Notes: a model not told the origin generated them from the letters alone. 46,614 nt of DNA, filler included, from Jimgerdemannia flammicorona (GCA_003990765.1; 2 parts of 2 records of this genome joined end to end with filler, not necessarily neighbours in it), one strand, 5' to 3'. Positions 1 to 25,647 are shown, numbered from the whole stretch's first letter. Translations and numbers: made by a program.

Positions 1-1
1 A

Positions 2-27
<26 letters not shown>
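1..27 (+). repeat. Poly(A) run, possibly the tail of an upstream LINE inserted into the gypsy element
   Basis: 27 A at the window start, similar to the 29-A tail of the LINE at 18988-19016. Upstream context is not visible. Confidence 0.4.
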
Positions 28-32
<5 letters not shown>

Positions 33-78
33 TGATGAACCACTAGCCCTCTTAGAGAACAGTGATGATGAAGAAGAA

Positions 79-486
79 ATCAAAGTCAAGATTCAGAAAA
101 TCCACTCTAATGTAGTTCTACCAGAATATAAGTCAGATAATATAGCTGGAATGGATATTGCCACAGTAGAGAAAACTATATTAGAGCCCCAGATAACTAT
201 CCTACTTATAACTAGTCTGGAAATAACTATTCCAAAGGACTATATTAGGATCCTTAAGACAAGAAGTAGCCTAACTAAGAGTAAGATTACTATCAAAGGA
301 GGAGTCATCAATTCAGACTATATTAGAAAAATACTTCTCATTGCTAGAAACCACAATCTTATAATTCTATTTCTAATCAAGAAGAACTAATTGGTGCAGA
401 TATTGATCTTTCTAGTTCTTCAGCCAAAGATCATAAAAGTCAAAAAGTTGGAGAAAACAGAAAGAGGAAAGAAAGAATTCAGATAT
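79..486 (+). pseudogene. dUTPase domain of the gypsy pol
   Basis: One frame gives LPEYKSDNIAGMDI (motif 1), RSSL (motif 2), GGVINSDY (motif 3) and TERGKKEF (degenerate motif 5 RGxxGFG). One internal stop at 388-390. Confidence 0.85.
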
Positions 487-699
487 ATAAGAAGAGAAGT
501 ATTTACCAGTACTAAGATTATTGAACTAGATTATAAGAAGGAGGAAACTACAAAAAAGTATAGCTATACTATTAGAGATGAATTTCTGCTCAAGAAGGAA
601 CTCAAGAAAATACTCTATAAATTTGAGGATATCCTAGCTACAAACTTTAAGAATATCAAAAAAAAAAAAAACTCTATACTACTATCATAATATAGATAT

Positions 700-1629
700 A
701 GAAGATACTGAACTAATTTATCAAAAAGCAAGACCAATTCCATCAGTTTATTATAAATGGCTCAGAGAAGAAATCAAGCAGATAGAAGAAACCAGTATCA
801 TCAAAAAAGCCAGTAGCCCTTAGACTTTACCAGTTATATTGACTCTAAGAAAGAAAAGTAAACTAGAAGAATTTACTCTAAGGCTCTGCACTAATTACAG
901 AAAGCTCAACCTAACTATAAAGAAGGATTGTCAACCACTGCTACTTATCAGCAACATTCTTATAACCTTAGGAGATAAAGTATAGTACTATAGTATCTTA
1001 GACTTATATTCAGAATTCTATCAAATTGGTCTTACAGAAGTAGCAAGTGAGAAGTCAGCCTTCATCACTCTAGATAGAATCTATATCTATCTATAAATAC
1101 TATTCAGAATATATAATATACTAGCAAGCTTTCAGTAAATAATAAATAAAATCTTCTACTATAATATAGAAAGATAGATGATAGTTTATATAAATGATAT
1201 TATCATCTATAGTAAAACAGCTGAAGAATATCTGCAGTACATCTAGCAGATAATAGAAAAGCTAAGTATGGTCTATATATTAAGCTCAAGAAGTACAAGT
1301 TTGTAGAAATTGAGATCTCCTACCTTGGTCACATTATCAACTGAGATAGAATATATATAGACCTACTTAAGATTTAAGCAGTAATAGTATCCTCAAGGCC
1401 CACTACTGTTACTAAAACCCAAGCCTTCATAGAACTTATCTCTTACTACTGTAGATTTATTAAGAAATTCTTCAATATTATAGATCTAATCTATGAACTC
1501 AATAAAAAAGATATCAAGTTCCAATAAACTGGCAGATAACAAAAAGCATTTGATGAGCTCAAGATTAGACTGACTCAAGCATCTATTCTCAGAAGACCTA
1601 ATTGGATCTAAAATTTATTCTATAGACAG
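700..1629 (+). pseudogene. Gypsy reverse transcriptase remnant
   Basis: RLCTNYRKLN, LDLYSEFYQI, KSAFIT, VYINDIIIYS (YxDD decayed), ISYLGHII, YYCRFIKKF, QKAFDELK. Confidence 0.85.
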
Positions 1630-1969
1630 TGTCATGTAGTGGTCACTGAGTCCTTCAAATATACCAGATTCTCTTCAAGGTATATCTCTTAGACTAACTC
1701 AAGTTTGTTATAAGCAAGTTCTTATTGGAGTATCTTCCTAAGGTCTTATAGTCCTCAAACTTCTTATCTTTAACTGTCTTGTTATCTCTTAGATTGCTTG
1801 TAAGGGATTGTGTGTATTATACTGAGAAGACTGACTTTATTTTAGAGGAAATAAGAGTGGTATTTATACAAAATATAATTCAATAGTTACTAAGATATAA
1901 AGCTAAATATAAATTTTAATAACTAAAACTACTAAGTTTCAGGGTCGGCACTGATGGTTGTACAGGTTC

Positions 1970-2135
1970 AGGATGCTGGTATAATTCAGTGTCACATCAG
2001 AATATCAGTGCTGGAACAATTTTGTGTTACTTCAGAATACTGGTGCTGACATTATTTAGTGTTATATGAGAATACTGGTGCTGGAACAATTTTGTGTCAC
2101 CTCGGAATACCAGTGCTGGTATTATCCAGTGTAAC
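1970..2135. repeat. ~35-bp tandem repeat, about 4-5 units alternating two variants
   Basis: AGAATACTGGTGCTGGAACAATTTTGTGTCAC-type units alternate with AGAATACTGGTGCTGACATTATTTAGTGTTAT-type units. Confidence 0.8.
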
Positions 2136-2142
2136 AAAGAAC

Positions 2143-2955
2143 TTAGAGTAGAAAGTTCAGGACTATGGGGGCTTCATCATCATCATCATCATCATCACTG
2201 AAGGAGATGAGATTCGTGAATTCATCATTTTTGCATGCTTTGATGTCATGCGGGATGATGTCATCGCTGATGACATCATCATGTTCAGCAGTGGGGAAAT
2301 CAGAAATAAGATCTAGAGCTCTCCAGTCTATGAGGTTCTCTTCCACAAAATAGGGGACAAATGTCGGGTCTTTGGGAGATCGAACCCAGATGCTTGGGCC
2401 TTGAAATACTGAGATCAACTCTTGCAAGAATTGGTCTGGGTTATCCTGGAGGATAGGGTACCAGAAGTCTTCTACTTCATCACTATTGAGGGTGATAGTG
2501 GACTGGGCTTCTATAACCACTCTGGCTTCTAGTACATTAATATGGCAGGATGACAGGTCTCTGAAATCTGAGACTCTAACATACTCCAAGTTGGGGATTG
2601 ACTATGGTACATGCCTGAAGATCTGATGGATCTTCTTGGCTGTCCTTGTTCCACATATATCCATGGGAGTGGCATCTTGTAGCTCTTGAGTGCTGGCCTG
2701 TGGAAACTCCCAGTAGAGGAGGTTTCCTATTTCGTACTCCTGCCATATTTGGAGGCATTTGGTAGCAATGGTAATCCTTGTTTCCATTTCATAGTGGTAG
2801 AGGATAAAGTGATAGGAGTCTGTAGTATCCAGGTTGACACTAAGAGTCCTTCTTGAGTGGGTCCTCATAGCTCTTCTGATGTCTTGGAACATCCTTTCTT
2901 TAACTAAGATACCTTGGTGGTTCCTTGATCTTGAGATTTGGCAGGTAGCAGGCAT
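2143..2955 (-). pseudogene. ~270-codon ORF of unknown function within the LTR-like insert, with one in-frame TAG
   Basis: ORFs 2602..2955 and 2143..2589 are in the same frame, separated by a single TAG at 2602-2604. The C-terminus is acidic (SDDDDDDDEAP). Confidence 0.6.
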
Positions 2956-3200
2956 TTCATTTATGATAAGTCTTTGAGCTATTTTGGGATTAATGGTTCT
3001 TATTGGTTGCTGCTACTGTAGTTTCTTGATCCTTCTTTTATATTCTTCAGGATGCTTATACTGTGGTCACAATGACTCATAGTTGGTTATCATTGCTCAT
3101 CTCATATGCTATATAATCTTCTTATGTTCCAATCTGGTGGCTTGCAAGAAAAGGCCATCTCCTGTGCTAATGTCATCATTCTGGGGTCACTATTATAACA

Positions 3201-4763
3201 GATATACATAAGTATATAAGGACTAGGAGTAGTTCTGGCTCAAAAGAAAGACAAAGTAGAGTATATTATTATATATCTAAGCTGAGAAACTCAAGAAGCT
3301 GAAAAAGAGTATAAATTCTATAAGTTAGAATATCTTATAGTCATCTGAACTATAGAGAAGTTCTACTACTATCTTGCAGAGAGACACTTCACTATTCAGA
3401 TAGACTACTCAGCCCTTATCTGGCTATTAACTACTAGGTAACCCAAAGGACTCTATGCCAGATAGATTATAAAGTTGTAAGCTTATAATATAACCATTAT
3501 ATACTGCTCTGAAAGAACCAATAAACACAGATACTCTTTTATAGATACCCCAAAGAACTCTCAACTAGTAAATCAATCATAAATAAGAAACTCTACTATA
3601 GAATTATTACCTATATGAAATAGAGAAAGATGCTCCAATATCTAGAAGAATAGACATAAATGATTATTAATAGAATATAGAAACAATTTAAGACTGATGG
3701 AGAAATACTAAAGAAAGGAAAACTACTAGTTATACCTAAATACAAGAAGAAGTAAGCAATGAAATCAGTATATGAACTTAGCTATCTAGGAGGAACAAAC
3801 ATCTATAAAAAAGTAAAAAGAACAATATAGTGATCAGGAATAGAGAAGATATCAGATAATTTGTCAAAACTTATGATAAATATCAGAAATAAAAATAAAA
3901 CTAATAAAATCAAAACTCCAGATCAGTATATATACATAGAACCAGTATCCTTTGTATATATTGCAATAGATATAATTGATCCTCTACCCTTAACTTTGAC
4001 TGATAACTAATATATAATCATTATTATAGATCTTTTCATAAAATAGATAGAGACAGGACCTCTTAAAGAAGTCAATACATAGTCAATTGCTGATTTCTTT
4101 CACAACATCTATCATTTCAAGACCTCAGTACAAGTAACTACAGATAGAGGAACAGAATTCATGAACTAGTTCTTTAAGATTCTCTACAAAAAGTACAAGA
4201 TCCAGTATATTCAGACTATAGCCTATCATCTTCAGGAAAATGAATAAGCAGAAAGAACCAATAAGACTCTCAAGAATATTATTATCAAGATCTGCAATAA
4301 CTATAAAAACTGGAATCACTATCTACTAATAGCATTATCTGCTCTTTGGGATATTCAATTATAAAATACCTATTTTAACCCTTAAGAGATACTGTTTGAA
4401 GAAGAAAGTTCTCAAGAAACTTTATTATCTAATAGAGATACTGTATGGAAATATATAGATATAGAAATATAGAGACTATATCAAATCAGAAAGAAGACTG
4501 AGGATTACATAACCAAGGTGCAGATATTATAGTAGAATAATGTGAAAAAGATTCACAAGTCTTTGGAGATTATTAAGATAAGAGACAAAATTCTAATATA
4601 TCAGAATATAGTAGAAGCTTCATAGTTATGAAAACTGAAGTCTAAGTGGAAAGAATCTTATATTATACAAGATATAAAAGGAACTACCTTTTGGCTATAA
4701 AAACTCTTAGATATAATCTTCCCTACTATTATTTATTGAAATAAACTCAAGAAGTATCATAAC
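3201..4763 (+). pseudogene. Gypsy RNase H plus integrase remnant
   Basis: GLGVVLAQ, AEKEY..LE, HFTIQIDYSALIWL (RNase H); IAIDIIDPLP, TDRGTEFMN, AYHLQENE*AERTNKTLK (DDE core); KLKSKWKESY (decayed GPY/F module). Confidence 0.85.
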
Positions 4764-5750
4764 TAATCAACAGAGTATATACTACCACAGCCCTCAAGAT
4801 TACCAGTGCTATACAATGAGCTATAGAAAGACAATGATACACTACTGAGCTACTAATTATAGAAGAATCCTTTGACAGTATCTAGAGTATTGTTCAGATA
4901 TATTTATTATAAATCTCACATTTCAAGATCTATCAGAACCAGACTGAGTTTCAAGAATACTTCAAGTTGGGATAGCTACTAAACTCATAGCCAGAGATGA
5001 GAAAAGAAGACTGAATTAGAGAGTGCTTGCTTTCTTATACTCAGATCACAATTGCCAAGCAAGTTAATAAGTTGTTTAAAGATAATAAGCTAGCTCTAGC
5101 CCATTTTCAAGAAGAATATAATAATACAAATTGTACAGTATAAGGAGATATAACTGATGAAAGCTTGGGAGTTCAAGTGAATAGGATGTTTTAGAGACAA
5201 ATCATCTATTCAGAAGGAAGTAGTGATGGTTGATCTAAATCAGGAATATGAATCAGAAGAATAGACATTTGATTGCAGTACCTGAATCTGATTTCCAAAT
5301 ATAGTATAGCCTTACAAATAGCAGTCATATTTCACAAATATTAAAGTTTTCACAAATGTCAAAGATGTCAAGAATTAATACTTGTGAAAAGTGACTCACA
5401 GAAAATATAGTCATAACTTAGCCACCTTATAGCTAGCAAACTTATATAAATATCCCCAGTATCTAGAGTGAATAAAACCTCAGATTGAAATAGTTCAAAG
5501 CAAAGAGAAAACAAGAAAAACTAGTAAGTCTGCAGGCAGATACACTTTGAACTCACCCACCCCTGCATCCTGAGGACTCTGCAGAGTCAAAGAAGATCAA
5601 GTTTTCAAGATACAGAAATCTGACATACTTACCCAGTTATGTGTCTGCTACATTACAGTATGCAGGCAGGCTTATGTTGATATTGGCAGATGTTAGTATA
5701 AGGCAGCCATCGGCATTCCGGCGGAGATGGAAAAGGTTGTGGATGGTTCT

Positions 5751-5795
5751 GCGTGATGGAAAGTGGCGCGATGGAAAGTGGCGTGATGGAAAGTG
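5751..5795. repeat. 15-bp tandem repeat x3 (GCGTGATGGAAAGTG)
   Basis: Three adjacent near-identical units at the transposon/unique boundary. Confidence 0.9.
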
Positions 5796-6643
5796 ACAAT
5801 GTTGCGACTATCGAAAATAATATCACATAGTCACATGTCCGTCCCCTTTCCGCGTGGAGATAATCTTATTTTCTTAAAATACTGTGAAACCACGAGACCT
5901 GGAGTGATATCTATGTCGTTATAGGATTGGACCCATTACCAAATTACAACCATATGCATGTTTCGGTACATCTCGAAACCCCAGAGAAGATGCACTACCA
6001 ACGCACGGCTTAACTAACCCGGATAGATCAGAAAAGTCCGTCTGATCAGACAATAAAAGTCGAAATGATAAAAAATAAGGCAGCGATTTGAAATGTGAAG
6101 GCAGAATGCAGCGCATTATAAAATGATCGATTCTTTTATTGGAAGGTACGCCATTTTCGGAGATGTATACGTATTTGTTAGCTGAGAGAATGTAATATCT
6201 CAAGAACGGGAGCCTCCATTGCTCTACTGGCTGTATTATAAAATAAATAAAGCCTAAAGTCGGGAGGCGGAGAGCAGATCGTTGGTAGTTGAGTAGAAGT
6301 GACACACGTGGTGAAGGATGAAAATCGAGTGCCTACGCCCCAGGTCGAGAGGGAAATTGTACTACCATTTACTGATCGTAACGACGGAGATTTTAAGCAT
6401 ATGCGGATTTCCGTGGGCTGATTGTTAATCCCGGCGTCCACAACATTGATAATTACCTGTTATTAACCGAAAATTTTTTATACATAGTTACAAATGATTT
6501 ATTTTGGTTTAGACACAGGAGTTGGGAGTATGTGAGAGAGGTATGTGATAGAGAGTTTGTGCATAGACAGTGACGCTCTATGGGTTTGGTGGGTACCACC
6601 AGCCCGTTTTTGGGTATACCGTATTGAGTCGAGGTCGTTCTCA

Positions 6644-8476
6644 TTACATCATGAATTCATTACTTGTAATTTCCCCAAGGCCTGCATCTGATGTTTCCGC
6701 CAGTGCACTCTTCCTCGCCTTAACCTCCCGTCGATGGTTCCACCAACTTCGTATGCACACGTATATTATGTGGAGTCCGAGAGCTGCAAAAGGTGTGGTC
6801 AAACTGAGGATGCGATGCAAGGTTGTGAGGCAGTCAGCCCGTTGGTGGTTGATGAGCGAAGCGAGAATGCCAATGAAGCCGGCCTGATAGTCGAGAGTTG
6901 GAACAGCCTGTTTAAAGTTTGTGCGTTGATCGATGTATTCGTCAGTGGCGTTGGGGCCTCCAAGCAGAGCTCCTGCCGATTTTAAAAGTGTCAAAGTTAG
7001 TTGAAGTTGTCGGCTTGACAATGCCGAGTAATTTTACGCCCAGGCGGTAGACCCACCTACAATAACGTGCATGTTCCGCGCGGGCGTATTAATGTTGTTC
7101 CCACCGTGAGCTAGTCGGTGGGAGATATTGACGGGTGATTTTTCTGTGCCGGTGATGAAGACCATTCCGATGGGGTTTCTCCCGAGGGCATATTCCAGCT
7201 GCCGGACAGCAAAAGCAGATGCACGCCATGCGGAATGGCTTCCGCGAGTAGTTGGGGAGTCGGCGTACATTTGGGCAAGCCAAGCCGAATTCAGAGCATC
7301 TACAGGTAAATGTGTATATATATATATGAGCACTATATTTAGAGGTCACGGATTGTACGAAAATGCGTGATACTCACATCGGAGGGCACCCGTGTCGCTG
7401 ATATTTTCATAATATAGCATTCCCCCTGGCGTGAATATTGTTCCATATTTGTTATCAAACTTTAGCCACTCCCACATTCTCATATCACAATCCACGACAA
7501 TCGCATCGTCCGCCGCTAGCGTTCTGACGGCCAGTGCGCACATCAAATGCGCTTTTTGATCCCATGATGGCGGAAGACCGCGAATATTAGAGGTGACGGC
7601 GTATTGGCGGATATGGGTATCCAAGTCACGACGGTACGCATATTCCCCTGTGGCTTTGTAGAGCCAGGTGGCCGCCCACGCCAATTCGTCGCCATAGCCA
7701 CTTGACATGTAATGACCACGGAGGCGGGGAACCGAGCTGTTTACAGATCCAAGATATGTGGTAGCAAAGGTGTACATCTGCCGGCCATGGGCGAGGAGCC
7801 CTGCGGCGTACATGGGATCGCTGGCATGTAGAGCAAGTGATGCCGCGGTAAAAGCGGCGGCGGCCTGGTTGTAAAGAATATCGCATTAGCGGTCTGGCGC
7901 CAGCATGGATGACTTGTGAGAGAGTAATGGCATACCTCGCCTGCCAAGTCCGACCCTGGGTTTTGTGGATCAATGAAAGAGACGGGACGACGTGTAGAGG
8001 CTGCGTTTACCCCGTCGAACTGCTGCCAGCTGGCGAGATCAAATTTCGGGTCGCCCACCTACAAGTACAAAATTAGCCGCGCTTGCAAAGGACGCTCCGA
8101 GTGTTTAGCAGTAACAATAACACACCTGTGCAACATATGTATCCTCGTTAGCGTGACAAGCCAACATCCAGTCGGTCGCCCACCGAATCACTCTTGTGAC
8201 ATTATTAAGTTCTCCCACTTCCTCGAAAATGGCTCGGTACTCGATCGCCTGAAAAGATAGCATGGATACTGTGGCGGCAAGCGGGAAACCAAACTTGACA
8301 AAGTCGCTGCTGTCTAAGTAGCCGCCGGAAAGGTCGAGACCGACCGAGGCACCATCGTTGAGGGCAATGTCGGTGCGCCAAGGAACAGTGTTCCATTTCG
8401 GCAAGCGGCCGGATTGCTGGACCTGAAAAAAGACAAGGGACATTTTGAGGAGCTGGTTGAGGGACAAGGTGGCCAT
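6644..8476 (-). CDS. GH9 (endo-beta-1,4-glucanase fold) protein, ~510 aa, 5 exons, substituted catalytic acid, C-terminal hydrophobic segment
   Basis: Exons 8476-8126, 8058-7936, 7864-7378, 7299-7057 and 6972-6644 total 1533 nt. All four introns are GT-AG, 67-84 nt. Motifs: QQSGRLP..VPWRTD.ALNDG..GLDLSGGYLDSSDFVKFGFP, PGSDLAGE, DELAWAATWLYKATG, SWDQK, TPGG, LRYA, GALLGGP..D..R..LDYQAG. An upstream exon or signal peptide cannot be excluded. Confidence 0.9.
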
Positions 8477-9158
8477 ATTGTTTGTCGTGCGCTAATGGTT
8501 ATTGGTTACTTAGGTTTGAGAGAATCGCTGCTAAGCTACTATAATATACCGTTTGCCATGGTCTTTCGTCAAGCCTTTTAAACGATTTATTCATCAGGCT
8601 CCCTTTTTTGGAACACGAGTCAAACATAAAATATAATATAATGAAAGGGGACGGAAATGCAGGTGAGAAAAGTATTGACTTAATCATGTTAGCAAGGAGA
8701 TCAATTTAATGTCTCACATAAGAATGAAAAGCCCTTCGAAGTGTGATTTTATACTCGTGCCCAAAAAATAGAACAAAAACGACGGGGAAATAGTCGAGGA
8801 CGGGTTGGGGCCCGTTTTATGTTTTACCACCTTTTTTTTTGTCTCGGCCATCAGGGTTCAGAAATAGTGTATATTATCTTACCTGGTAAATAAATACAGA
8901 GACTCAATGTACAGGACAGACACAGCAGTATGTGGAATGCAGTATCTGAGAGAACGTCGCTGATGATTTAACCTCTCGCCACCATATCTCACAGTCAATA
9001 TGTGCGGGTATACGAATGGAAATGCCCCTATATGTGTCCACTGCACAGCTTTCATTCCGTTCACACGGCCTGCAAAGTGTCATGTACGGTCACGAGTGAG
9101 GTAGTATAAAAGAATGCCATGAAGCCAGCACCTCGACACCTCGACAAGTGCATAGAAA
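8477..9158. promoter_or_regulatory. Putative bidirectional promoter between the GH9 and GT2 synthase genes
   Basis: 682 bp between divergent ATGs. TATAAAAG on + at 9105-9112 and TATAAAA on - at 8753-8747, each with CACGAG shortly upstream. Confidence 0.55.
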
Positions 9159-11101
9159 ATGGTGTTCTCACTTCGTATTACATTCCGTATTTTCCTTTTA
9201 TTACTCTGCACGATCACCACAATCTCTTATACCGTCCTTCGAGCGCAATACACCATCGACCAACGAACACCAGCAAGGATTTGGTACACCACCCTTGTAG
9301 TATTCCTCGAACTCGTAAACGGGGTTGCGTTCCTTCTGATGCTCCTGGAGCGGGTTAGGTCAAACGCATCGCCGGGCCTCCCCATACCTTCCAGTAAGCG
9401 TGTCCCCGGAGACGTACAACGCAGCTCATCGTCTACCCTTAAGGCCACTGATCTCAATGAGGTCGCTGACAAGTCAAATATAGACGCCGTGTGGCCCACC
9501 GTCACAATCCTAATCACATGCTGTGGAGAGGATCCCGAGGTCATCCGTGGGACTGTGCTCGCTGCCCAGCGCGTGCGGTATCCTGTCGCAAGTAAGGTCC
9601 AGGTCTACCTTTGCGATGACGGCAAGAACCTCGACGGAATACCCCTCCACGTCGACGATCTCTTGCCCATCGTACTCGACCCATCCGCCTTCAGCACCGT
9701 TCGCGCCCCTCCAATTTACATCCGCCGCAAGAAGACCCCGAGCGTTCCACACCACGCAAAGGCCGGCAATTTAAACCATGCCCTGAAATGCACCCCTTAC
9801 TCTGACTTCGTGGCGGTATTCGATGCTGACATGCAATGCGATCCTGATTTCCTGCTCGAAACCGTGTCCAGATTATGCGAGGACAAGCAAGCCGCGTTCG
9901 TGCAGACGCCGCAAAGCTTTACTAATGCTGAGGAAAGTTCCGCGCGTGATCCGTTGGATACAATATCGCGAGTGTATTATAACGTGATCTTGCCGGGGTG
10001 GGCGGCGTGGGGTTGTACCCCATGTGCGGGGACCAACTTTTTAATGCGCAGGGCGGCCATTGACTCGATTGGGGGATTCCCGACTGGGTGCGTAACGGAG
10101 GACTATCTTATGAGCATGAAGGTACTGTGTCGGTTGCTTTTTGGCTTTGATATGAATGCCGCACCTAGTCTGACACTACCTATTTAACAGCTTCACGGAA
10201 AGGGCTGGACCTCCCTCTATCTCAACAAGGTTTTGGCCCGTGGTCTTGCACCCGAGAACATCAAGGACCTGTTCCGCCAACGCTCCCGCTGGGCCAAGGG
10301 CAACCTTCAGATCTGGTTCAACCACAACCCCATAATAGAACCCGGCCTCACTCCCATACAACGTCTTCTCTATATGTCTGTTGGTGTGGGATATCTCAAC
10401 TCCGCCCTCCTCGTATTCTGGATGGTTATCCCTATCTTTCACCTTATCACCGGTATCCTCCCGATTTTCCTGCAGGATACGTGGATGGCATACATCATTG
10501 TGGCGCAACTACTGTTCACGCAGGTCGCGGGAATCTTCCTGTCCATCCCGAGTGGTGGTGATCAATTTACGGAGCATCTGCTATCTTTCTGGTCATCCTC
10601 GCAGTTTGCGTGGATGTTCCAGTACTATCATGCCAAGGTATGCTTCTTGAGTAATTGTTGGAGTTCTAAGCTCGACAAGTTTTGACTACAACTCTTTTGC
10701 AGGCCACGATAGTCTCCTTCCTTGGCCGCGACTTAAGTTTCAAAGTCTCTGACAAGGGTGGCCCACAGCGCAGCCACGTCTCCGCCTCCCTTCGTTTGAC
10801 GTGGTTCAACTTGGTGGTGTCAGTTATTATGCTCGCCGCTCTTGCGTACCGTATTGTCCTCCTTGCCATCAAGGCCAAGAACACCGGCCTTAATCCTCAG
10901 GACGTACAGTATCTGCTATCTGCAGTGTTCATCCTCAACATTATTTGTGTTCAGAGTCAGGTCGTGTTTCTTGCCATCAAAGACAACATCCTCCGCGGGT
11001 GCAGCCACATCTTTGTGTTAGTTTGGCAGAACTTGTCCCTGTTTGGGGTGGGAGCGGCACTGTGCATACTCGCGAAATTGGTGGGATTTTCTGACGTATG
11101 A
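9159..11101 (+). CDS. Cellulose synthase-like processive GT2 (BcsA/CesA/CelA type), ~602 aa, 3 exons
   Basis: Exons 9159-10121, 10191-10637 and 10703-11101 total 1809 nt. Two N-terminal TM segments, then DDG, HAKAGNLN, FDAD, FVQTPQ, TED, RGLAPE, QRSRW, gating-loop-like FKVSDK, and several C-terminal TM segments. No PilZ domain seen. Confidence 0.92.
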
Positions 11102-11699
11102 AAATGGTGCTTACATGAAATAAGCAAAACAAAAATCATTCGAATTTCATATTAAACGAGCTGATTATAAATAGATAGTTCATTTACCAATATGTTGGTC
11201 ATATATAAACCATTCGAATCCTGGGAATGCGAACGATTCCCTTGTAACAGAATTTTGTCGCCTGTAAAGCCCGGAAGTCATCGACGTAAGTGCAAGCACT
11301 TCGTTTGCTTTTCGAAACGATTTTCATGTTTATCACGACTGCCGATGCGCTCCAGCCACCGCAATTAGCGCAGACTGCTTCGATCGTACCACGTGTCGCC
11401 AATGGAGGTAGACGTTGTTTGTTTCACCTGAGGCGTTGACGGTGACGTATTATTTGCAATTGCGGTAGTAGGCCGAACAAAACGAAACTCGGCAAGGGTA
11501 CCAATGGCGGAAAGAACAACCTGCTCGTCTTGAAGCCTTGGAACGCATCTAGAATCGCTTTGTTGCCGTCGACACAAAGCATCACCATTGATGATATCTA
11601 CATCTAGAACAAGCCACTGAAGAAATCCTGTTAGTCAAGTTGCATATTTTAGCACTCCTGCTCAACAAGATGTAATTTTCAAGTTGCAATAATAACCCA

Positions 11700-12875
11700 A
11701 GTATAACCCAAGCAGAAATACATATAAAAAAGAAAGATCTAAAAGATCCATTTATCCCTACTTATAGTATAGAAAAAAGTGGTAAAAAAATATAAGTCAT
11801 AGATACATATATATTATTGATAATATACATAGTTGAAATTTATGAAATTATCAGTAATAAATATAATAAATATAAGATATATAAAAATATTGGTCTTTTT
11901 CTTATTTTTTTCTTAATATTAAGTATCTTATCTTAGCTAATTATAGAATTTTTTTTAGTTATATTTTGCTAAAATTCCTTTTTAGCATTATTTTGATATT
12001 TTTTTTTATTTCTAAGATTATTTTAGATCTTTTTTTTAGATCTTATATAAACTACTTTATCTGTTTAAATAAAGCTTAGAATATTTTTTCTCAGAAAATC
12101 TTTAAGAACTACTTAAATCTATAATATCATTTTAAGCTATTTAGATTACTTAAATATTTTAAAACTTAGTTATTTCTTATTAAAAACTAGAACTATTATA
12201 CTTAATAGTAGTAGTGAAGTTATATTTTATCTTATTAAAAAATCTAAAGATTATAATTTAATATTAGAAAAACTCTAATTTATATACTATAACTTATTAT
12301 AAAATAAAGTTACTTTATTTTAAAATAGAGCTAACATTGTCATTATGTCAAATAAGTCTATAAATAAAACTTAAATTATAACTCTCTCAGTAATATATTA
12401 TAAAAAAGTACTTAGAAAATCTATATATACTTTTATTACTATTATTAATCTAAAAAGTAAGATAAGAAACTATTAATTAATAAAAGTATCAAGTTACTAC
12501 TAAAAGAATTCAAGAATATCTTTTCTGAAAATTTATTTAATCTATTATCTATATAAGAAATAGATAATAAATTATTATATATCTATATAAGAAATAGATA
12601 ATAAATTGTTATATATCTATAAGTCACTGGAATTTCTGATGAAAATTCTGATAGAAATTTCTATAAAAATTTTTATAAAATTTTTAACTAGTAGTTATAG
12701 TTATCTAAAATAGTATAAATATAAATAGATATATTCAGCATATTATATTTAGTTATAGCCTCAAATATATATAAATACTCTCTATACTAAGAGTATTATA
12801 ACCTTAGCACTTATTTCTTCTCTTAAGAATAAATCAATATTCTTATTCAAGAACTTCCAGATATAACTTATTAAC
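11700..12875. mobile_element. Extremely AT-rich, heavily mutated repeat relic of unknown family; right part is LTR-like
   Basis: Very TpA-rich with no ORFs. 34-bp direct duplication near 12547-12620. A TATATAAATA...CTTATTTC...AATAAA segment resembles the LTR-like insert. Confidence 0.45.
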
Positions 12876-13218
12876 AAGACACTTTTCACTATAATATTCA
12901 GGTGATACAAGACTCAGACAATACTTTCTGCAATATTTTTGATAAAAGGAGACTATCAACATAGATAGCAATAAATGTACTGGTGAGCATGTTGGCCAGG
13001 GGGACAGTAGTACCTTCAACTGGCAATATGTCAGAAGGAGGCAAGAAGATGGTTTAGAGATGCCGGAGCCTTCTATGGTTGGCCATAATACTGGTAATAG
13101 AGGGAGGGGTGAATTGAGGCAGTAAGGAGGGCATCACACCTTTCTCCTATACAATTCATGTTATACAAAACTTCAAGCAACAGTTTTCAACACAACTAGG
13201 AGAAAAGGTACTATCAAA

Positions 13219-15246
13219 ATGTCATCAAGCAAGAGCTCTGACAGGCATACTGGGTCAGGGGGATCTGGAGCTTTTGGCTGGCAAAATGTAGGGAGGGGTT
13301 ATGGCCTGGGGATGGGGGTCTTTAGAGAGTCAAAGAGCAGTGAGGGTTCTGGAGAAGGATAAGAGTTGGGTGGTAATGGGGGAAGGTCTGGCCTCTCAAG
13401 CTTTGTGGACAAGGTGAAGGGAAGTGGATGGCCAGCTGGAGACAGGACTAGTGCTACTGTGGGAAAGGGCAAGGTGAGCCTTGGGAGGGGGGGAGGCCCT
13501 CAGGCTAGGGACATGAGCATAGGGTCTGGAGGTGTGGTGGCTGGGGGGGGGGACTGCTGATAGAGGTATAACGGAGAATCAGAAAAAAAAAGAGATGTGA
13601 CAGCTGATAGTGGAGTAGGGCTGGGGCTACCGATTTGGAAGGGGGACCTGGCTGATGGTGTAACAGGGCTGGTGGTAGCACTATTACTCAAGAAGTCAGT
13701 TTCCGAGTTCACAGCTACCTTGTGCTTCCAGGACTTGGCAGTGATGGCAAGGATAGTCCTGGGGCTTATCTTGCAGCAGGTGGCTAGGGCAGCCTCAGTG
13801 AAGTTCCTGAAGGGGCTGGAGGGAGTGGAGGTAGGCTTTGAGGAGGTGAGCCCACTGGATGAGGCAATGAAGACTGGAGTGGTAATTGGTGAAGTGGTGG
13901 TCTCTATAGTGCACTGCCTTAGGTGAGACCCCAGAGTGGTACAGCTACTAGTCAAAGGGGTACCTATAGTGATGAAGGTTGAGACTAGGAGAAGGGTAGA
14001 GGAGGTGGTGGCAGAGTATAGCAATATAGTGAATATCGGATTCCAGGTGTGGGAGGGGACAGCAATCAGGACAGATGATGTGGATGTCAGGATTAGGCTG
14101 GCAGGAAGGGAGGCCACTGGAAAGGTGAGTGACTGGCCTTCAGTGCTGATGTGGGGGGCTGTTGTCTGTAGGGTGTCGAGGGTGAAGGGGAGTGAAGAGG
14201 AGGAGGAGGACTTGTTGGAAGTGCTGGAGAAGTTGAGTGGTGCAGTGGAATGGAGGGCGAAGGCCTGGAAGCTCTTTGAGGAGATGATGTATCTGGAGGT
14301 TATGGAGGGGAAGTATATCCACATGGACAAGAGGCAGTGGGAGTGAGCACAAGGGCACAGGAGGCAGAGGGAGCTTTTGGCAAGTATGAAAGTAGAGGTG
14401 AAGAAGAAGGCAGATGGGGCCAAGGTGACTGGGGGCATCGAAGCCAGTATCTGGGCTGGTAAAGGAGAGGGGGAGGTGGAGGCAGGCAAGGAAGAAGTTG
14501 GGAAGGTATCGAGCAAGGACCCCTATACCGATGGCACTTTTGAGGTCTGGGAGCAGAAATTGGATACCACCTCCCCCCCTCTTATCAGGAGGGGCCTGGC
14601 TGTAAAGAGAAGGACAACAGAGGATGTACTGATGAAGGGGGCCCAGCAAGTGTGCTTTAGGGTCCCTGATGTGGCAGAAGGGGACCAGGTGGTGGTAGTT
14701 GGTGAGGATGAGCTGGTGGATGTCTCTGAGGAGAAGTGGGATGAGGCTGCCAGTGTAGGTGCTGACACCATGATGTTGGATGCAGGACAGCCAGGGACTC
14801 CGAGTGGGAAGGAGGTGGGGAACTTGCTGTGGATGAGCAAGGTGATGGACAACCTTGTGGCTGAGGTATTGGGAGAAGTGGACCTGTGGGTAATACCTGA
14901 TGAGCATTGGGCATGAATTCTGTGCAGAGATGGAGTAGTAGAAGCACTGAGGGCAGAGATTCTTACAATCTTCCTGGAGGAGGAGGGATATGAGGTCGAT
15001 GAGGTGAGGAAGGTGGAGCTGATGGTGGTCACAGGTGAGCGAGCAGCCTACTATTGGGCTGAGCATCATGGTTTGTAGCTCTGGAGGGAGGCCTGTCTGG
15101 AGTATCATGAGGACTTTGAGGAGAGAGAAGATGGGGCAATGGTAGAACTTCTGGGAGGGTTGGAGGCATAGAAAGCTGGGGAAAGGGAACTAACTGCTGA
15201 ACATGACTTAGACTTGGTATAGGAGGAGCAGAATGTGGACTTGTAG
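13219..15246 (+). pseudogene. LINE A ORF1 (~675 codons, several stops)
   Basis: ORF fragments at 13366, 13597, 13936 and 14377 share one frame from ATG 13219 and are colinear with LINE C ORF1. Confidence 0.75.
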
Positions 15247-23363: not shown

Positions 23364-25032
23364 GCCGAAGCCAATTTGCAAGCATCACACCATTCTTATC
23401 ACCAGCCTCTGCGCGCTTCAGAGTATCGGCATGATCGAGAAGTAACAAACTCGCCGGATAACCTACGAATTCCTTGATGATGTCGGATTCTAACTGAACG
23501 ACGTCGTCATCCCGGTAGCTCCGATTCTTCAACTGCGACTGAATCTCCTCCGGAAATATGACATCAACCAGACGTCTAAGATATTCAATAAACGATATCC
23601 CCATGAGATCGAATTGCCAGGCGAAGATTCCACCGGGGAAGAGATGGGCCGTTCGTCTCACTGCTTCCATAGCCAACGCCGTCTTGCCCACTCCGCTGAT
23701 ACCCTCAATTGTGAATACACCACAAGTCTGATTGCTGCGATTTGCCATGCGCTTCAAAGCATAATTCAATTCGACAAGCTCCCTCTTGCGTCCGAAAAAC
23801 GAGGATGTGCGCAGGTTGTGGAGGTTGTTCCGAGGCATGTGTAGATTTATAATTGGGTCACCCCTTTCGCATTCAAATGTGCCGTCGTTTGCTCTAATCG
23901 TCGACGAATAGAGCACCATGGCGCCAGGGAAATAGTCACGCTTCCGGACGTTGTCGTAGCTGTGGAGGAAAACGCGCGCCCTCCACATCGCCTTCTCAAC
24001 TGTGGAGTCACTAGCAAGAACCTGGTAGAACTTGGATTCGAATTCGCGGGCGAGATCATCTGGTAAGTCACAATACGACCCAATGGTGTACGGAACACCA
24101 TGCTCGAGCAGAATTCGGGCGACGTCACGAGTATTGCAAGCAGAGAGGAATGCGAGTCGCAGGTGTTTTGGCACGTTCAAGTGTGTTGTGTTGACGAATT
24201 CGGGTTCACCGGATTCTTTATCTTCGAAGATGAGGGCCCTCGCACCAGCATTCGATTGGCAGTGACCCATGAAATGAAGTGCTGTGGCTGTCTCAGGGCT
24301 GTCCATGAGTACTACGTCCATTTGGTCAACAGTAGGTGGGAAAACACGTTCCAATATTACTTTTTTTCTGTTGGCCGAGTGGCTATTTATAAAGCTTAGG
24401 AACTGGTCGCTCAAATTCAAAGCTGAAAGATTTGCATCACAATTGCCTGGTGGGATAATAGGGTCCGGTACGACAGCGACAATGCGCAATGGAGATTTCA
24501 GATGCTGATGATATTCCTGAGGGTCCCCTCTGGTTCGGCTCGGTTCTTGACTTATAAAGGGAGCTCTCAAAAAGCTCGTTAATTTCTGTCTCGGTCCTGG
24601 ATTCGAATGGATAGGAACCATATTGTACATGCGAGCAAACATGCATTGGTGTACCAGATATGCATGATTACCCCACGTGTACTCCCAGGGGATAACGTCG
24701 AGATCATGATCATGGTTGAGCTCAAGCAGGATCCGACCCGTTGGGTTAGGCGGTAATATTTTATCAAGCATCTTATGGGCTGGACTGGAGTCATTCTCCG
24801 AAAAGAGGGCCCTAAATAACAACTTTCCGTATTTCCTGAGATCAGCAGACTTGGGTTGCTCGTTGAATACTTCGACAGCAATGAATCGACCCTCCTCGAG
24901 TCGTTGAAGGTTGAAGGAATGGCTATATATGAGCTCCGCCTGCTCATCGTCGATGGCGGAAACCTTGACGCGGACCTTGATCTCTTTGGAGTTGTCGCTG
25001 GTGGTATTATCCTTTAACAACGATACTTGCAT
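23364..25032 (-). CDS. CHAT (caspase-like) protease domain plus STAND/NB-ARC-like NTPase, NLR-like protein; 3' end lost in the gap
   Basis: Uninterrupted ORF of >550 codons from ATG 25032. CHAT motifs IPWE, ALHFMGH (His) and AFLSAC (Cys), then FFGRKRELVEL, Walker A GISGVGKT and Walker B LLLLDHAD. Confidence 0.88.
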
Positions 25033-25647
25033 GATTGGGAATGTGGGTTTGCAGGTATGTACGCAAGTCAAGTACAATAAGCTTGTGTTTGACACACTCG
25101 CTCTTGCGAAACAATCCTGCCTGATTCATCTTTTTCGGGTCGAACCCGATTGGAATGTATTTCCCAATCAGGCATACTCGGCGACATTCGATTTGATTGG
25201 TGAAAGGTATAATAAATCAATTTTTCTCTATCTGACACTCTATAATACCAAAATTTTTATATAAATAAAAGAAAATAGATGTTAAATATATTACTTTAAT
25301 ATCTACTTTGAATAATTATATTTCAAAAATTTCAATATAAAATAAATCTATATCAAATAGATATTTAAGAATATATATAATTAAAATTAAAAATCTATTT
25401 CAAATTATTGAAAAATAATATTAGAAAAAATATATTATACTTTTATATATCTCTTTCTCTATAACTGAGAATATTACTAAGTAGATAATTTTTATTTTGA
25501 AAAAAATGATAATAATATATTTTTTATTATAAATATAACTCAATTTATTCAAAAATGAAATTTGTTTAAAGTTATTTATATCTGGTATCAACTATAGAGA
25601 ATATATTGTCAACTAAATACTAATCAGTTAATAGAAAATGAATAATT

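Follow-up and report, generated by a model that had tools for sequence, protein, structure and literature searches.

The window, the whole analysed stretch of 46,614 nucleotides (filler included), contains a GH9 gene of Jimgerdemannia flammicorona (Endogonales) in which valine occupies the position of the general-acid glutamate. A CesA/BcsA-like synthase gene lies head-to-head with it. That this GH9 is not a canonical hydrolase is well supported. We give an even chance to the reading that it is a maintained, non-hydrolytic partner of the adjacent synthase, held in the membrane by a predicted C-terminal anchor.

Active-site residues of the GH9

The GH9 gene was located at 8476-6644 on the minus strand and encodes 510 aa in five exons. 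The initial annotation had given the range 6860..8330; the gene is present there, but its start at 8476 falls outside. The annotation had also described the reading frame and the four introns as intact, and this was upheld. The frame was open across 510 codons, and the introns (67, 71, 78 and 84 nt) each ran from GT to AG. The C-terminal hydrophobic helix was a feature absent from that first reading. The parts of the gene are listed below.

8476-8126, minus strand: exon 1 (aa 1-117), with the ATG at 8476 and D55-S-S-D58; covered by run X1 at 8123-8423
8314-8312, minus strand: codon of D55; the base aspartates D55 and D58 are both retained
8058-7936, minus strand: exon 2, with Leu125 at the His125 position (codon 8037-8035)
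7864-7378, minus strand: exon 3, with GYGDE and WD motifs retained; Thr316 takes the place of the WGxLRY Trp and is preceded by a three-residue 'xxSD' insert also found in fungal GH9s
7299-7057, minus strand: exon 4, with Ser380 replacing Cel9A His376 (codon 7123-7121) and Arg382 (Arg378) retained
6972-6644, minus strand: exon 5, with the catalytic-acid loop, last barrel helix, hydrophobic helix, basic tail and stop
6904-6902, minus strand: Val425 (GTT), at the general-acid Glu position (Cel9A Glu424)
6811-6752, minus strand: membrane helix predicted near the C-terminus at aa 456-475 (Kyte-Doolittle 1.74), then RSWWNHRREVKARK
8125-8059, 7935-7865, 7377-7300 and 7056-6973, minus strand: introns, all spliced in run X1

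When aligned to Pfam PF00759, as had been proposed, all five exons matched in order (profile positions 3-444), the match of exon 2 being weak (E 0.042). In the genome-wide family search the gene scored a summed 117 + 155 bits. Intron 1 (between YxAQ and VG, phase 0) was found at the same place in the paralogues L013, L014 and L015. Introns 2 and 4 were rejected as shared with paralogues because they are 3-4 nt off the paralogue introns.

The C-terminal motif RTNFKQAVPTLDYQAG aligned without gaps to solved GH9s, and Val425 fell on the Glu of NEV (7unp, 2xfg). The Glu424 numbering was taken from Thermobifida Cel9A (1js4), whose residues 401-443 were aligned to query 1-42. In 7v0i the Val425 column holds Gln where the otherwise matching 7unp stretch has Glu, suggesting that 7v0i is an inactivated mutant. 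A homologue set of 100 full-length GH9 domains was drawn from 296 proteins, and 98 of the 100 had Glu in the acid column, confirming the initial report of Val at the general-acid position (GTT, 6904-6902). The codon was said to need two transversions from GAA/GAG. This is correct for GTT, but Val itself is one change away, through GTA or GTG.

The numbering of exon 1, which covers Cel9A 8-112, was identical to that of Cel9A, which identifies D55 and D58 as the base pair. Both were retained in DSSD (55-58), which replaces DAGD, and A56 and G57 (99/100 homologues) had both become Ser. The exon 4 alignment placed Ser380 on His376, which is His in 96/100 homologues, and Arg378 was retained. The further motifs read DL (124-125), TGALRY (316-321) and ISHR (379-382), and all four motif changes (DAGD to DSSD, DH to DL, PHHR to ISHR and WGxLRY to TGALRY) were present as first described. 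As a separate observation, the NPH to NIS change (7129-7121, minus strand) removes His376 and makes a sequon, N378-I-S, at the cleft; the five sequons of the GH9 were near the chance number (P 0.13).

Two of these changes carry little weight for loss of activity. Trp313 was missing in four of four fungal-clade rows, all of which retained Glu, and His125 was Asn in both readable fungal rows (P0004 and L014), again with Glu retained. Because fungal GH9s with Glu had lost them too, these two losses are not marks of a dead enzyme, and the initial use of DH to DL and WG to TG as such signs was not sustained. The changes special to this GH9 were AG to SS, His376 to Ser and Glu to Val.

We take the roles of the Cel9A residues (general acid, base Asp pair and +1-subsite His376) to apply at the corresponding GH9 positions. 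His376 of GH9 enzymes holds the leaving group. Of the feature set of an active GH9 endoglucanase, the base Asp and Arg378 were present, and the general-acid Glu and His376 were absent. With no general acid to protonate the leaving oxygen, normal inverting hydrolysis by this GH9 is very unlikely, judging from the family mechanism. The claim that the protein is not a canonical hydrolase is thus well supported at the sequence level by the lost acid, the lost His376 and AG to SS.

It is quite improbable that the protein is still an enzyme, either with another carboxylate in place of Glu424 or with slow or altered activity (another linkage, a substrate-assisted acid). Such activity would be in keeping with the two retained base Asp, with the retained R418, D429 and Y430 frame, and with the family-rare acids E290, D295, E311 and E413 (found in 2-14 of 100 homologues), E311 and D315 being located in the loop preceding the Trp313 position. 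However, the alignment, in which another acid at this position was to count against the initial annotation, contained no acid residue within three positions of Val425; D429 and D416 are family-wide structural positions; and His376 is gone too.

Maintenance, transcription and paralogues

Conservation was analyzed by column. At columns conserved in at least 95% of homologues, this GH9 kept 33 of 39. Four of the six losses were in active-site motifs (A56S, G57S, H380S and E425V), the others being W75F and A185G; 3/100 homologues lost six or more of the 39. At columns conserved in at least 85%, 73/99 were retained; the median homologue missed 6, and three homologues missed at least 26.

Pseudogene marks (stops, frameshifts, broken splice sites, silencing) were absent. 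The GH9 end branch was 1.7-2.1 changes per column long, with the frame open. In simulated neutral drift to 26% amino-acid change, the frame stayed open in 3/1000 runs, and in 0/1000 runs with indels, indicating that the divergence, taken as a whole, built up under selection. Long neutral decay was thus excluded, and the sequence data support maintenance through most of the gene's history; selection presumably acts on it today. Drift to 2% change left the frame open in 633/1000 runs, and in 415/1000 with indels, which is also compatible with a recent loss of constraint.

Two runs, X1 and X2, were taken as RNA solely from their spliced joints, no run being recorded as RNA. In X1 all four GH9 introns and both synthase introns were spliced. 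In X2 GH9 intron 4 and both synthase introns were spliced, and the Val codon was outside the cover. X1 had 16 listed differences from the window, none of them at 6902-6904. An assembly error was therefore rejected as the source of Val425, since X1 was spliced and showed no other letter at the Val codon despite its differences elsewhere. Four of the differences fell within the GH9 codons; three were silent, and the fourth was L105M. The chance of three silent differences in four is 0.04-0.08 under neutrality, and with four sites this silent excess is only suggestive of constraint. The synthase coding sequence had five listed differences, three silent and two not.

The gene pair lies in a CpG-retaining island with a sharp edge to repeat-like flanks (1-5500 and 12001-14000), whose CpG o/e was 0-0.28.

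5501-11500, no strand: CpG-retaining island, CpG o/e 0.68-1.36 per 500 bp

The GH9 and synthase genes were the only recognised genes of this island, and the CpG o/e of the GH9 gene was 1.0. The CpG scarcity of the flanks suggests methylation-driven loss rather than classic RIP. RIP as a context was rejected, since the flanks were CpG-poor without a CpA/TpA signature and the GH9 gene was unaffected.

The GH9 family search of the genome gave 16 matches at 8 loci, of which 2/8 had the full canonical Asp/Asp/Glu set. These canonical paralogues were L013 and L014. In L015:4157-6150 (G000:C1947), YYATGT stands at the YYDAGD site, so that neither base Asp remains and only the acid Glu is retained; by sequence it is a candidate mirror-image pseudo-enzyme. 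L011:892 and L012:6748 (G000:C3798 and C152) have YEAAN at the base motif (Asp55 to Glu, Asp58 to Asn), with Glu retained; these YEAAN GH9s, together with P0002, form a long-branched subfamily. Two GH9 copies are broken by stops and frameshifts: L017 (G000:C24534), which has Gly at the acid position, and L022 (G000:C229). These pseudogenes are relatives of L015 and of L011/L012. Among the 8 loci, the sole intact one without the acid was the locus adjoining the synthase. No synthase match was found beside the other odd-motif paralogues, and a search with the last exon found no second copy of this GH9 in its own genome.

Orthologues were searched for in several collections. Exon 1 was compared with 1.84 billion representatives, and the best 150 of 2318 matches were at most 49% identical. 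Exon 3 against longer proteins gave six generic GH9s among 5136 candidates, 33-42% identical, and no orthologue. The protein atlas held generic GH9 clusters only, with no orthologue. The best identity of this GH9 was about 48% over exon 1 and 40% overall. The synthase found two distant intron-rich loci among 27 candidates in metagenome contigs, with no orthologous pair, and 0/3 in viral contigs. As these searches found no orthologue, both the Val and the gene pair are known from one species.

An unlikely alternative is that the gene once encoded an active KORRIGAN-like partner cellulase, which diverged under selection and has recently lost constraint. The lost acid and lost signal peptide would then be the first steps of pseudogenisation, and transcription would ride on the synthase promoter. 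The missing signal peptide, the 415-633 of 1000 open frames after 2% drift and the lack of an orthologue to date the Val agree with this, and the genome does shed GH9 copies, as L017 with its Gly, stops and frameshifts illustrates. Recent decay sits poorly with the concentration of four of the six near-invariant losses (39 columns) in active-site motifs. It must also accommodate a codon, GTT, that required a second, silent change, and several more changes for AG to SS and PH to IS, all of which implies time. The same Val codon was present in a second, differing allele, three of four coding differences were silent, and CpG was intact. The initial description of the gene as maintained therefore held for the long open-framed branch, the fold-core columns, splicing, CpG and the silent differences, with a recent relaxation possible.

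The adjacent synthase and the predicted membrane anchor

The synthase gene and the GH9 gene are divergent.

9159-11101, plus strand: CesA/BcsA-like GT2 synthase, 602 aa (exons 9159-10121, 10191-10637 and 10703-11101)
8477-9158, no strand: gap of 682 bp between the two start codons of the head-to-head GH9/synthase pair
8889-9438, minus strand: spliced RNA with a 102-nt intron (9171-9070), overlapping the synthase 5' end

The synthase motifs DDG, DAD, TED and QRSRW were all intact, and the gene was the sole match in the genome (single copy in a 231-Mb assembly). Its spliced product was identical to P0127, a protein assigned to Jimgerdemannia flammicorona. The single-sequence structure model was unusable (pLDDT 40), and the alignment-based model (pLDDT 78) was used instead. 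Its best match was BcsA (E 1.6e-23, TM 0.70), with plant CesA second. The protein already appears as 'JfCesA' in a dendrogram in the available text of an earlier paper (PMC7567880). An Ascomycota GT2 cluster scored equally high by features (0.97). From its sequence, the synthase may make cellulose or a related beta-glucan. It has no PilZ domain, and no BcsB-like neighbour was recognised within the 5501-11500 island.

The two genes may share a promoter. The spliced minus-strand RNA at 8889-9438 is antisense to the first 280 coding bases of the synthase, and a consensus donor (8882) lies 6 nt from its end. It is possibly a GH9 leader or an antisense RNA. No coding frame was found when one was looked for from this RNA into the GH9.

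The predicted C-terminal helix sits where hydropathy places the anchor of the fungal GH9s P0004 and L013. The helix (called by hydropathy alone), a basic tail and the 'xxSD' insert are features that this GH9 shares with the fungal anchored clade. No signal peptide was evident after the ATG at 8476, and the GH9 domain begins at aa 8. The fungal GH9 P0004, in contrast, has a signal peptide. An in-frame upstream exon at 8687-8550 is possible by sequence, in a stretch without read cover. Without a signal peptide, the GH9 domain could be cytosol-facing or mistargeted. With no signal peptide to put the domain where the glucan emerges, its topology is the main weakness of a glucan-binding role. The initial suggestion of glucan binding was accordingly weakened, His376, His125 and Trp313 also being lost. 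Several cleft residues were kept (W128, Y210, W259, R320, Y321, R382 and Y430).

We propose the following mechanism for a synthase partner. The GH9 retains both base aspartates and would still fold as an (alpha/alpha)6 barrel, anchored in the membrane at its C-terminus. Lacking Glu424, the +1-subsite His376 and the Ala-Gly of DAGD, it would be unable to protonate the glycosidic oxygen and would not cut beta-1,4-glucan by the normal inverting route. Its gene is transcribed head-to-head with that of the single CesA/BcsA-like synthase of the fungus; the protein would be made together with the synthase and dock on it through the membrane helix. It might then aid synthase folding or traffic, or guide or release the glucan chain through its partly kept cleft. 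This would correspond to the scaffold half of plant KORRIGAN function, with the protein a member of neither KORRIGAN nor tunicate CesA-GH6. The loss of activity would follow from the family mechanism, and membrane insertion and contact with the synthase are likewise presumed. The synthase-subunit role first proposed would rest on head-to-head position and analogy.

The evidence on this partnership points both ways. GH9/CesA pairing is known from green-algal fusions, and the CesA-linked GH9 of L020 has lost the same residues. Against it, enzyme activity is present in both KOR1 and BcsZ, the established partners of synthases, and odd catalytic motifs also occur in GH9 paralogues beside which no synthase match was found.

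A maintained non-catalytic GH9 might also do a job apart from the synthase complex, which we regard as improbable. It could bind cello-oligomers or plant-wall glucan at the surface or membrane of the root interface, or be a cytosol-facing scaffold, and the neighbourhood would reflect shared regulation or chance in a gene-poor genome. The residues remaining in the cleft are compatible with such a binder, contact between GH9 and synthase is presumed, the gene pair is known from one species, and in L015, near which no synthase match was found, the two base Asp are gone. Yet the only intact acid-less GH9 among the 8 loci sits 682 bp from the single synthase, and green algae have these two families fused in one protein.

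Comparison with known synthase-glucanase pairs

The initial annotation compared this GH9 with the degenerate GH6 domain of tunicate CesA. That domain lacks the catalytic Asp and keeps the rest of the signature, according to the accessible text of PMC7464555, so the comparison holds as described. In both systems a cellulase-family domain has lost its catalytic acid beside a cellulose synthase. The tunicate domain is a GH6, fused and conserved across tunicates, whereas the present one is a GH9 encoded by a separate gene in one species. Green-algal CesA-GH9 fusions and plant KORRIGAN are closer analogues.

Coccomyxa subellipsoidea has four CesA-like proteins with attached GH9, as described in the available part of PMC3446292. 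A search with one algal fusion found four proteins matching both window genes (P0226, P0298, P0299 and P0300) and four further relatives, probably truncated. In this set of algal fused or probably fused GH9s, of which P0226 and P0299 are from Bryopsis, 8/8 kept DAGD and Glu, so GH9s joined to this synthase type are not dead as a rule. These fusions resemble the window pair in tying a BcsA-type GT2 to a GH9. They differ in being one protein, whereas the window has two head-to-head genes and a GH9 with its own predicted C-terminal helix, and this GH9 groups loosely with fungal GH9s, not with algal fused ones. In the Bryopsis-type fusions P0226, P0299 and P0300, the GT2 motifs are degenerate and the GH9 is canonical, the reverse of the window pair.

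A related locus was found at L020:9275-13320 (JADEYI010000051.1), where an intron-rich CesA precedes a membrane helix and a GH9 of the same orientation; CesA and GH9 are probably fused. The gene model was built from tblastn pieces, with a one-residue gap near the acid. Its GH9 has Arg at the acid position, DAGD is lost, and the His125, Trp313 and His376 positions are changed. It thus resembles the window GH9 in lacking the acid and these three residues and in keeping Arg378. L020 grouped with the algal fusions (95 SH-aLRT) and, by sequence, may be a second CesA-linked GH9 pseudo-enzyme.

Plant KORRIGAN1 (GH9A) is an active GH9 within the cellulose synthase complex, as stated in the accessible portions of PMC9099982 and PMC8774047. 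According to the available text of PMC3829318, KOR1 is an endoglucanase of type II topology, anchored at its N-terminus, and that of PMC4226561 reports that its membrane helix is required for CESA binding. KORRIGAN1 and the window GH9 are alike as membrane-anchored GH9s (the latter by prediction) linked to cellulose synthesis. KORRIGAN1 has an N-terminal anchor and is active, in contrast to the predicted C-terminal anchor and missing acid here, and the window GH9 did not group with plant GH9s in the 30-row tree. To our knowledge, KOR1 is not encoded beside CESA. Bacterial BcsZ (GH8) and CcsZ (GH5) are active glucanase partners of the synthase in the part of PMC8892547 available. The bacterial bcsA-bcsZ/ccsZ clusters likewise join a synthase gene and a glucanase gene; their partners are GH8 or GH5 and active, whereas the window has a GH9 without the acid and a synthase without PilZ.

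A further comparison is with the fungal anchored GH9s (P0004 of Melanogaster, L013 and L014). They share the C-terminal helix, the basic tail, 'xxSD', the intron between YxxQ and VG and the loss of Trp313 and His125, and they were tree neighbours of the window GH9 (82/96). They keep DAGD, His376 and Glu, whereas the window GH9 does not, and P0004 has a signal peptide and a linker where the window GH9 has no signal peptide.

The careful GH9 tree used 30 rows picked from 71, leaving out P0147, P0148, P0270, P0197, L020 and two paralogues. The window GH9 was placed on a long branch with the fungal anchored clade and one further row, a grouping not starred, and fell outside a starred group of algal, plant and animal rows. 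Algal placement gave a p-AU of 0.10 and bacterial placement 0.18, neither being rejected. Direct descent from the algal fusions is not favoured. The best BLAST scores were bacterial (36-40% identity, compared with 32-33% for the fungal anchored GH9s), so these scores favour a bacterial origin and the tree a fungal one. In a quick tree with long branches, the synthase fell in a starred 14-row set with the algal-fusion GT2s, apart from the bacterial rows (99 SH-aLRT).

Taken further, the pair might form a two-gene Jimgerdemannia cassette for cellulose or a related beta-1,4-glucan, with the dead GH9 as an obligatory membrane co-subunit in the place of BcsB or KORRIGAN; we consider this rather doubtful. 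If it were true, the pair would join tunicate CesA-GH6 and L020 as the third independent instance in which a cellulose synthase took on a cellulase fold that was later disarmed. The disarming would have struck the same active-site positions, and the scaffold role would be separable from cutting. Why cellulose synthases need a cellulase partner, for cutting or for scaffolding, is an open question, and three rival roles for KOR1 are listed in the accessible text of PMC9099982. A natural acid-less GH9 and a small single synthase provide a two-gene system for testing cutting against scaffolding. The pair further points to a Mucoromycotina fungus that forms mycorrhiza and makes beta-1,4-glucan.

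No earlier account of this GH9, its Val substitution or the gene pair was found in a literature search largely outside subscription papers, the genome paper and bioRxiv supplements, and the available part of PMC7928374 held nothing relevant. In the accessible text of PMC12574304, GH9 is counted as the commonest cellulase family of Endogonales, and GH9s of this group are counted as cellulases in lifestyle comparisons, yet only 2/8 loci here were canonical.

On the other contig, apart from the gene pair, a 586-codon frame at 23368-25125 on the minus strand matches a CHAT protease domain and, weakly, the AAA_16 NTPase. By sequence, this may be an NLR-like arrangement.
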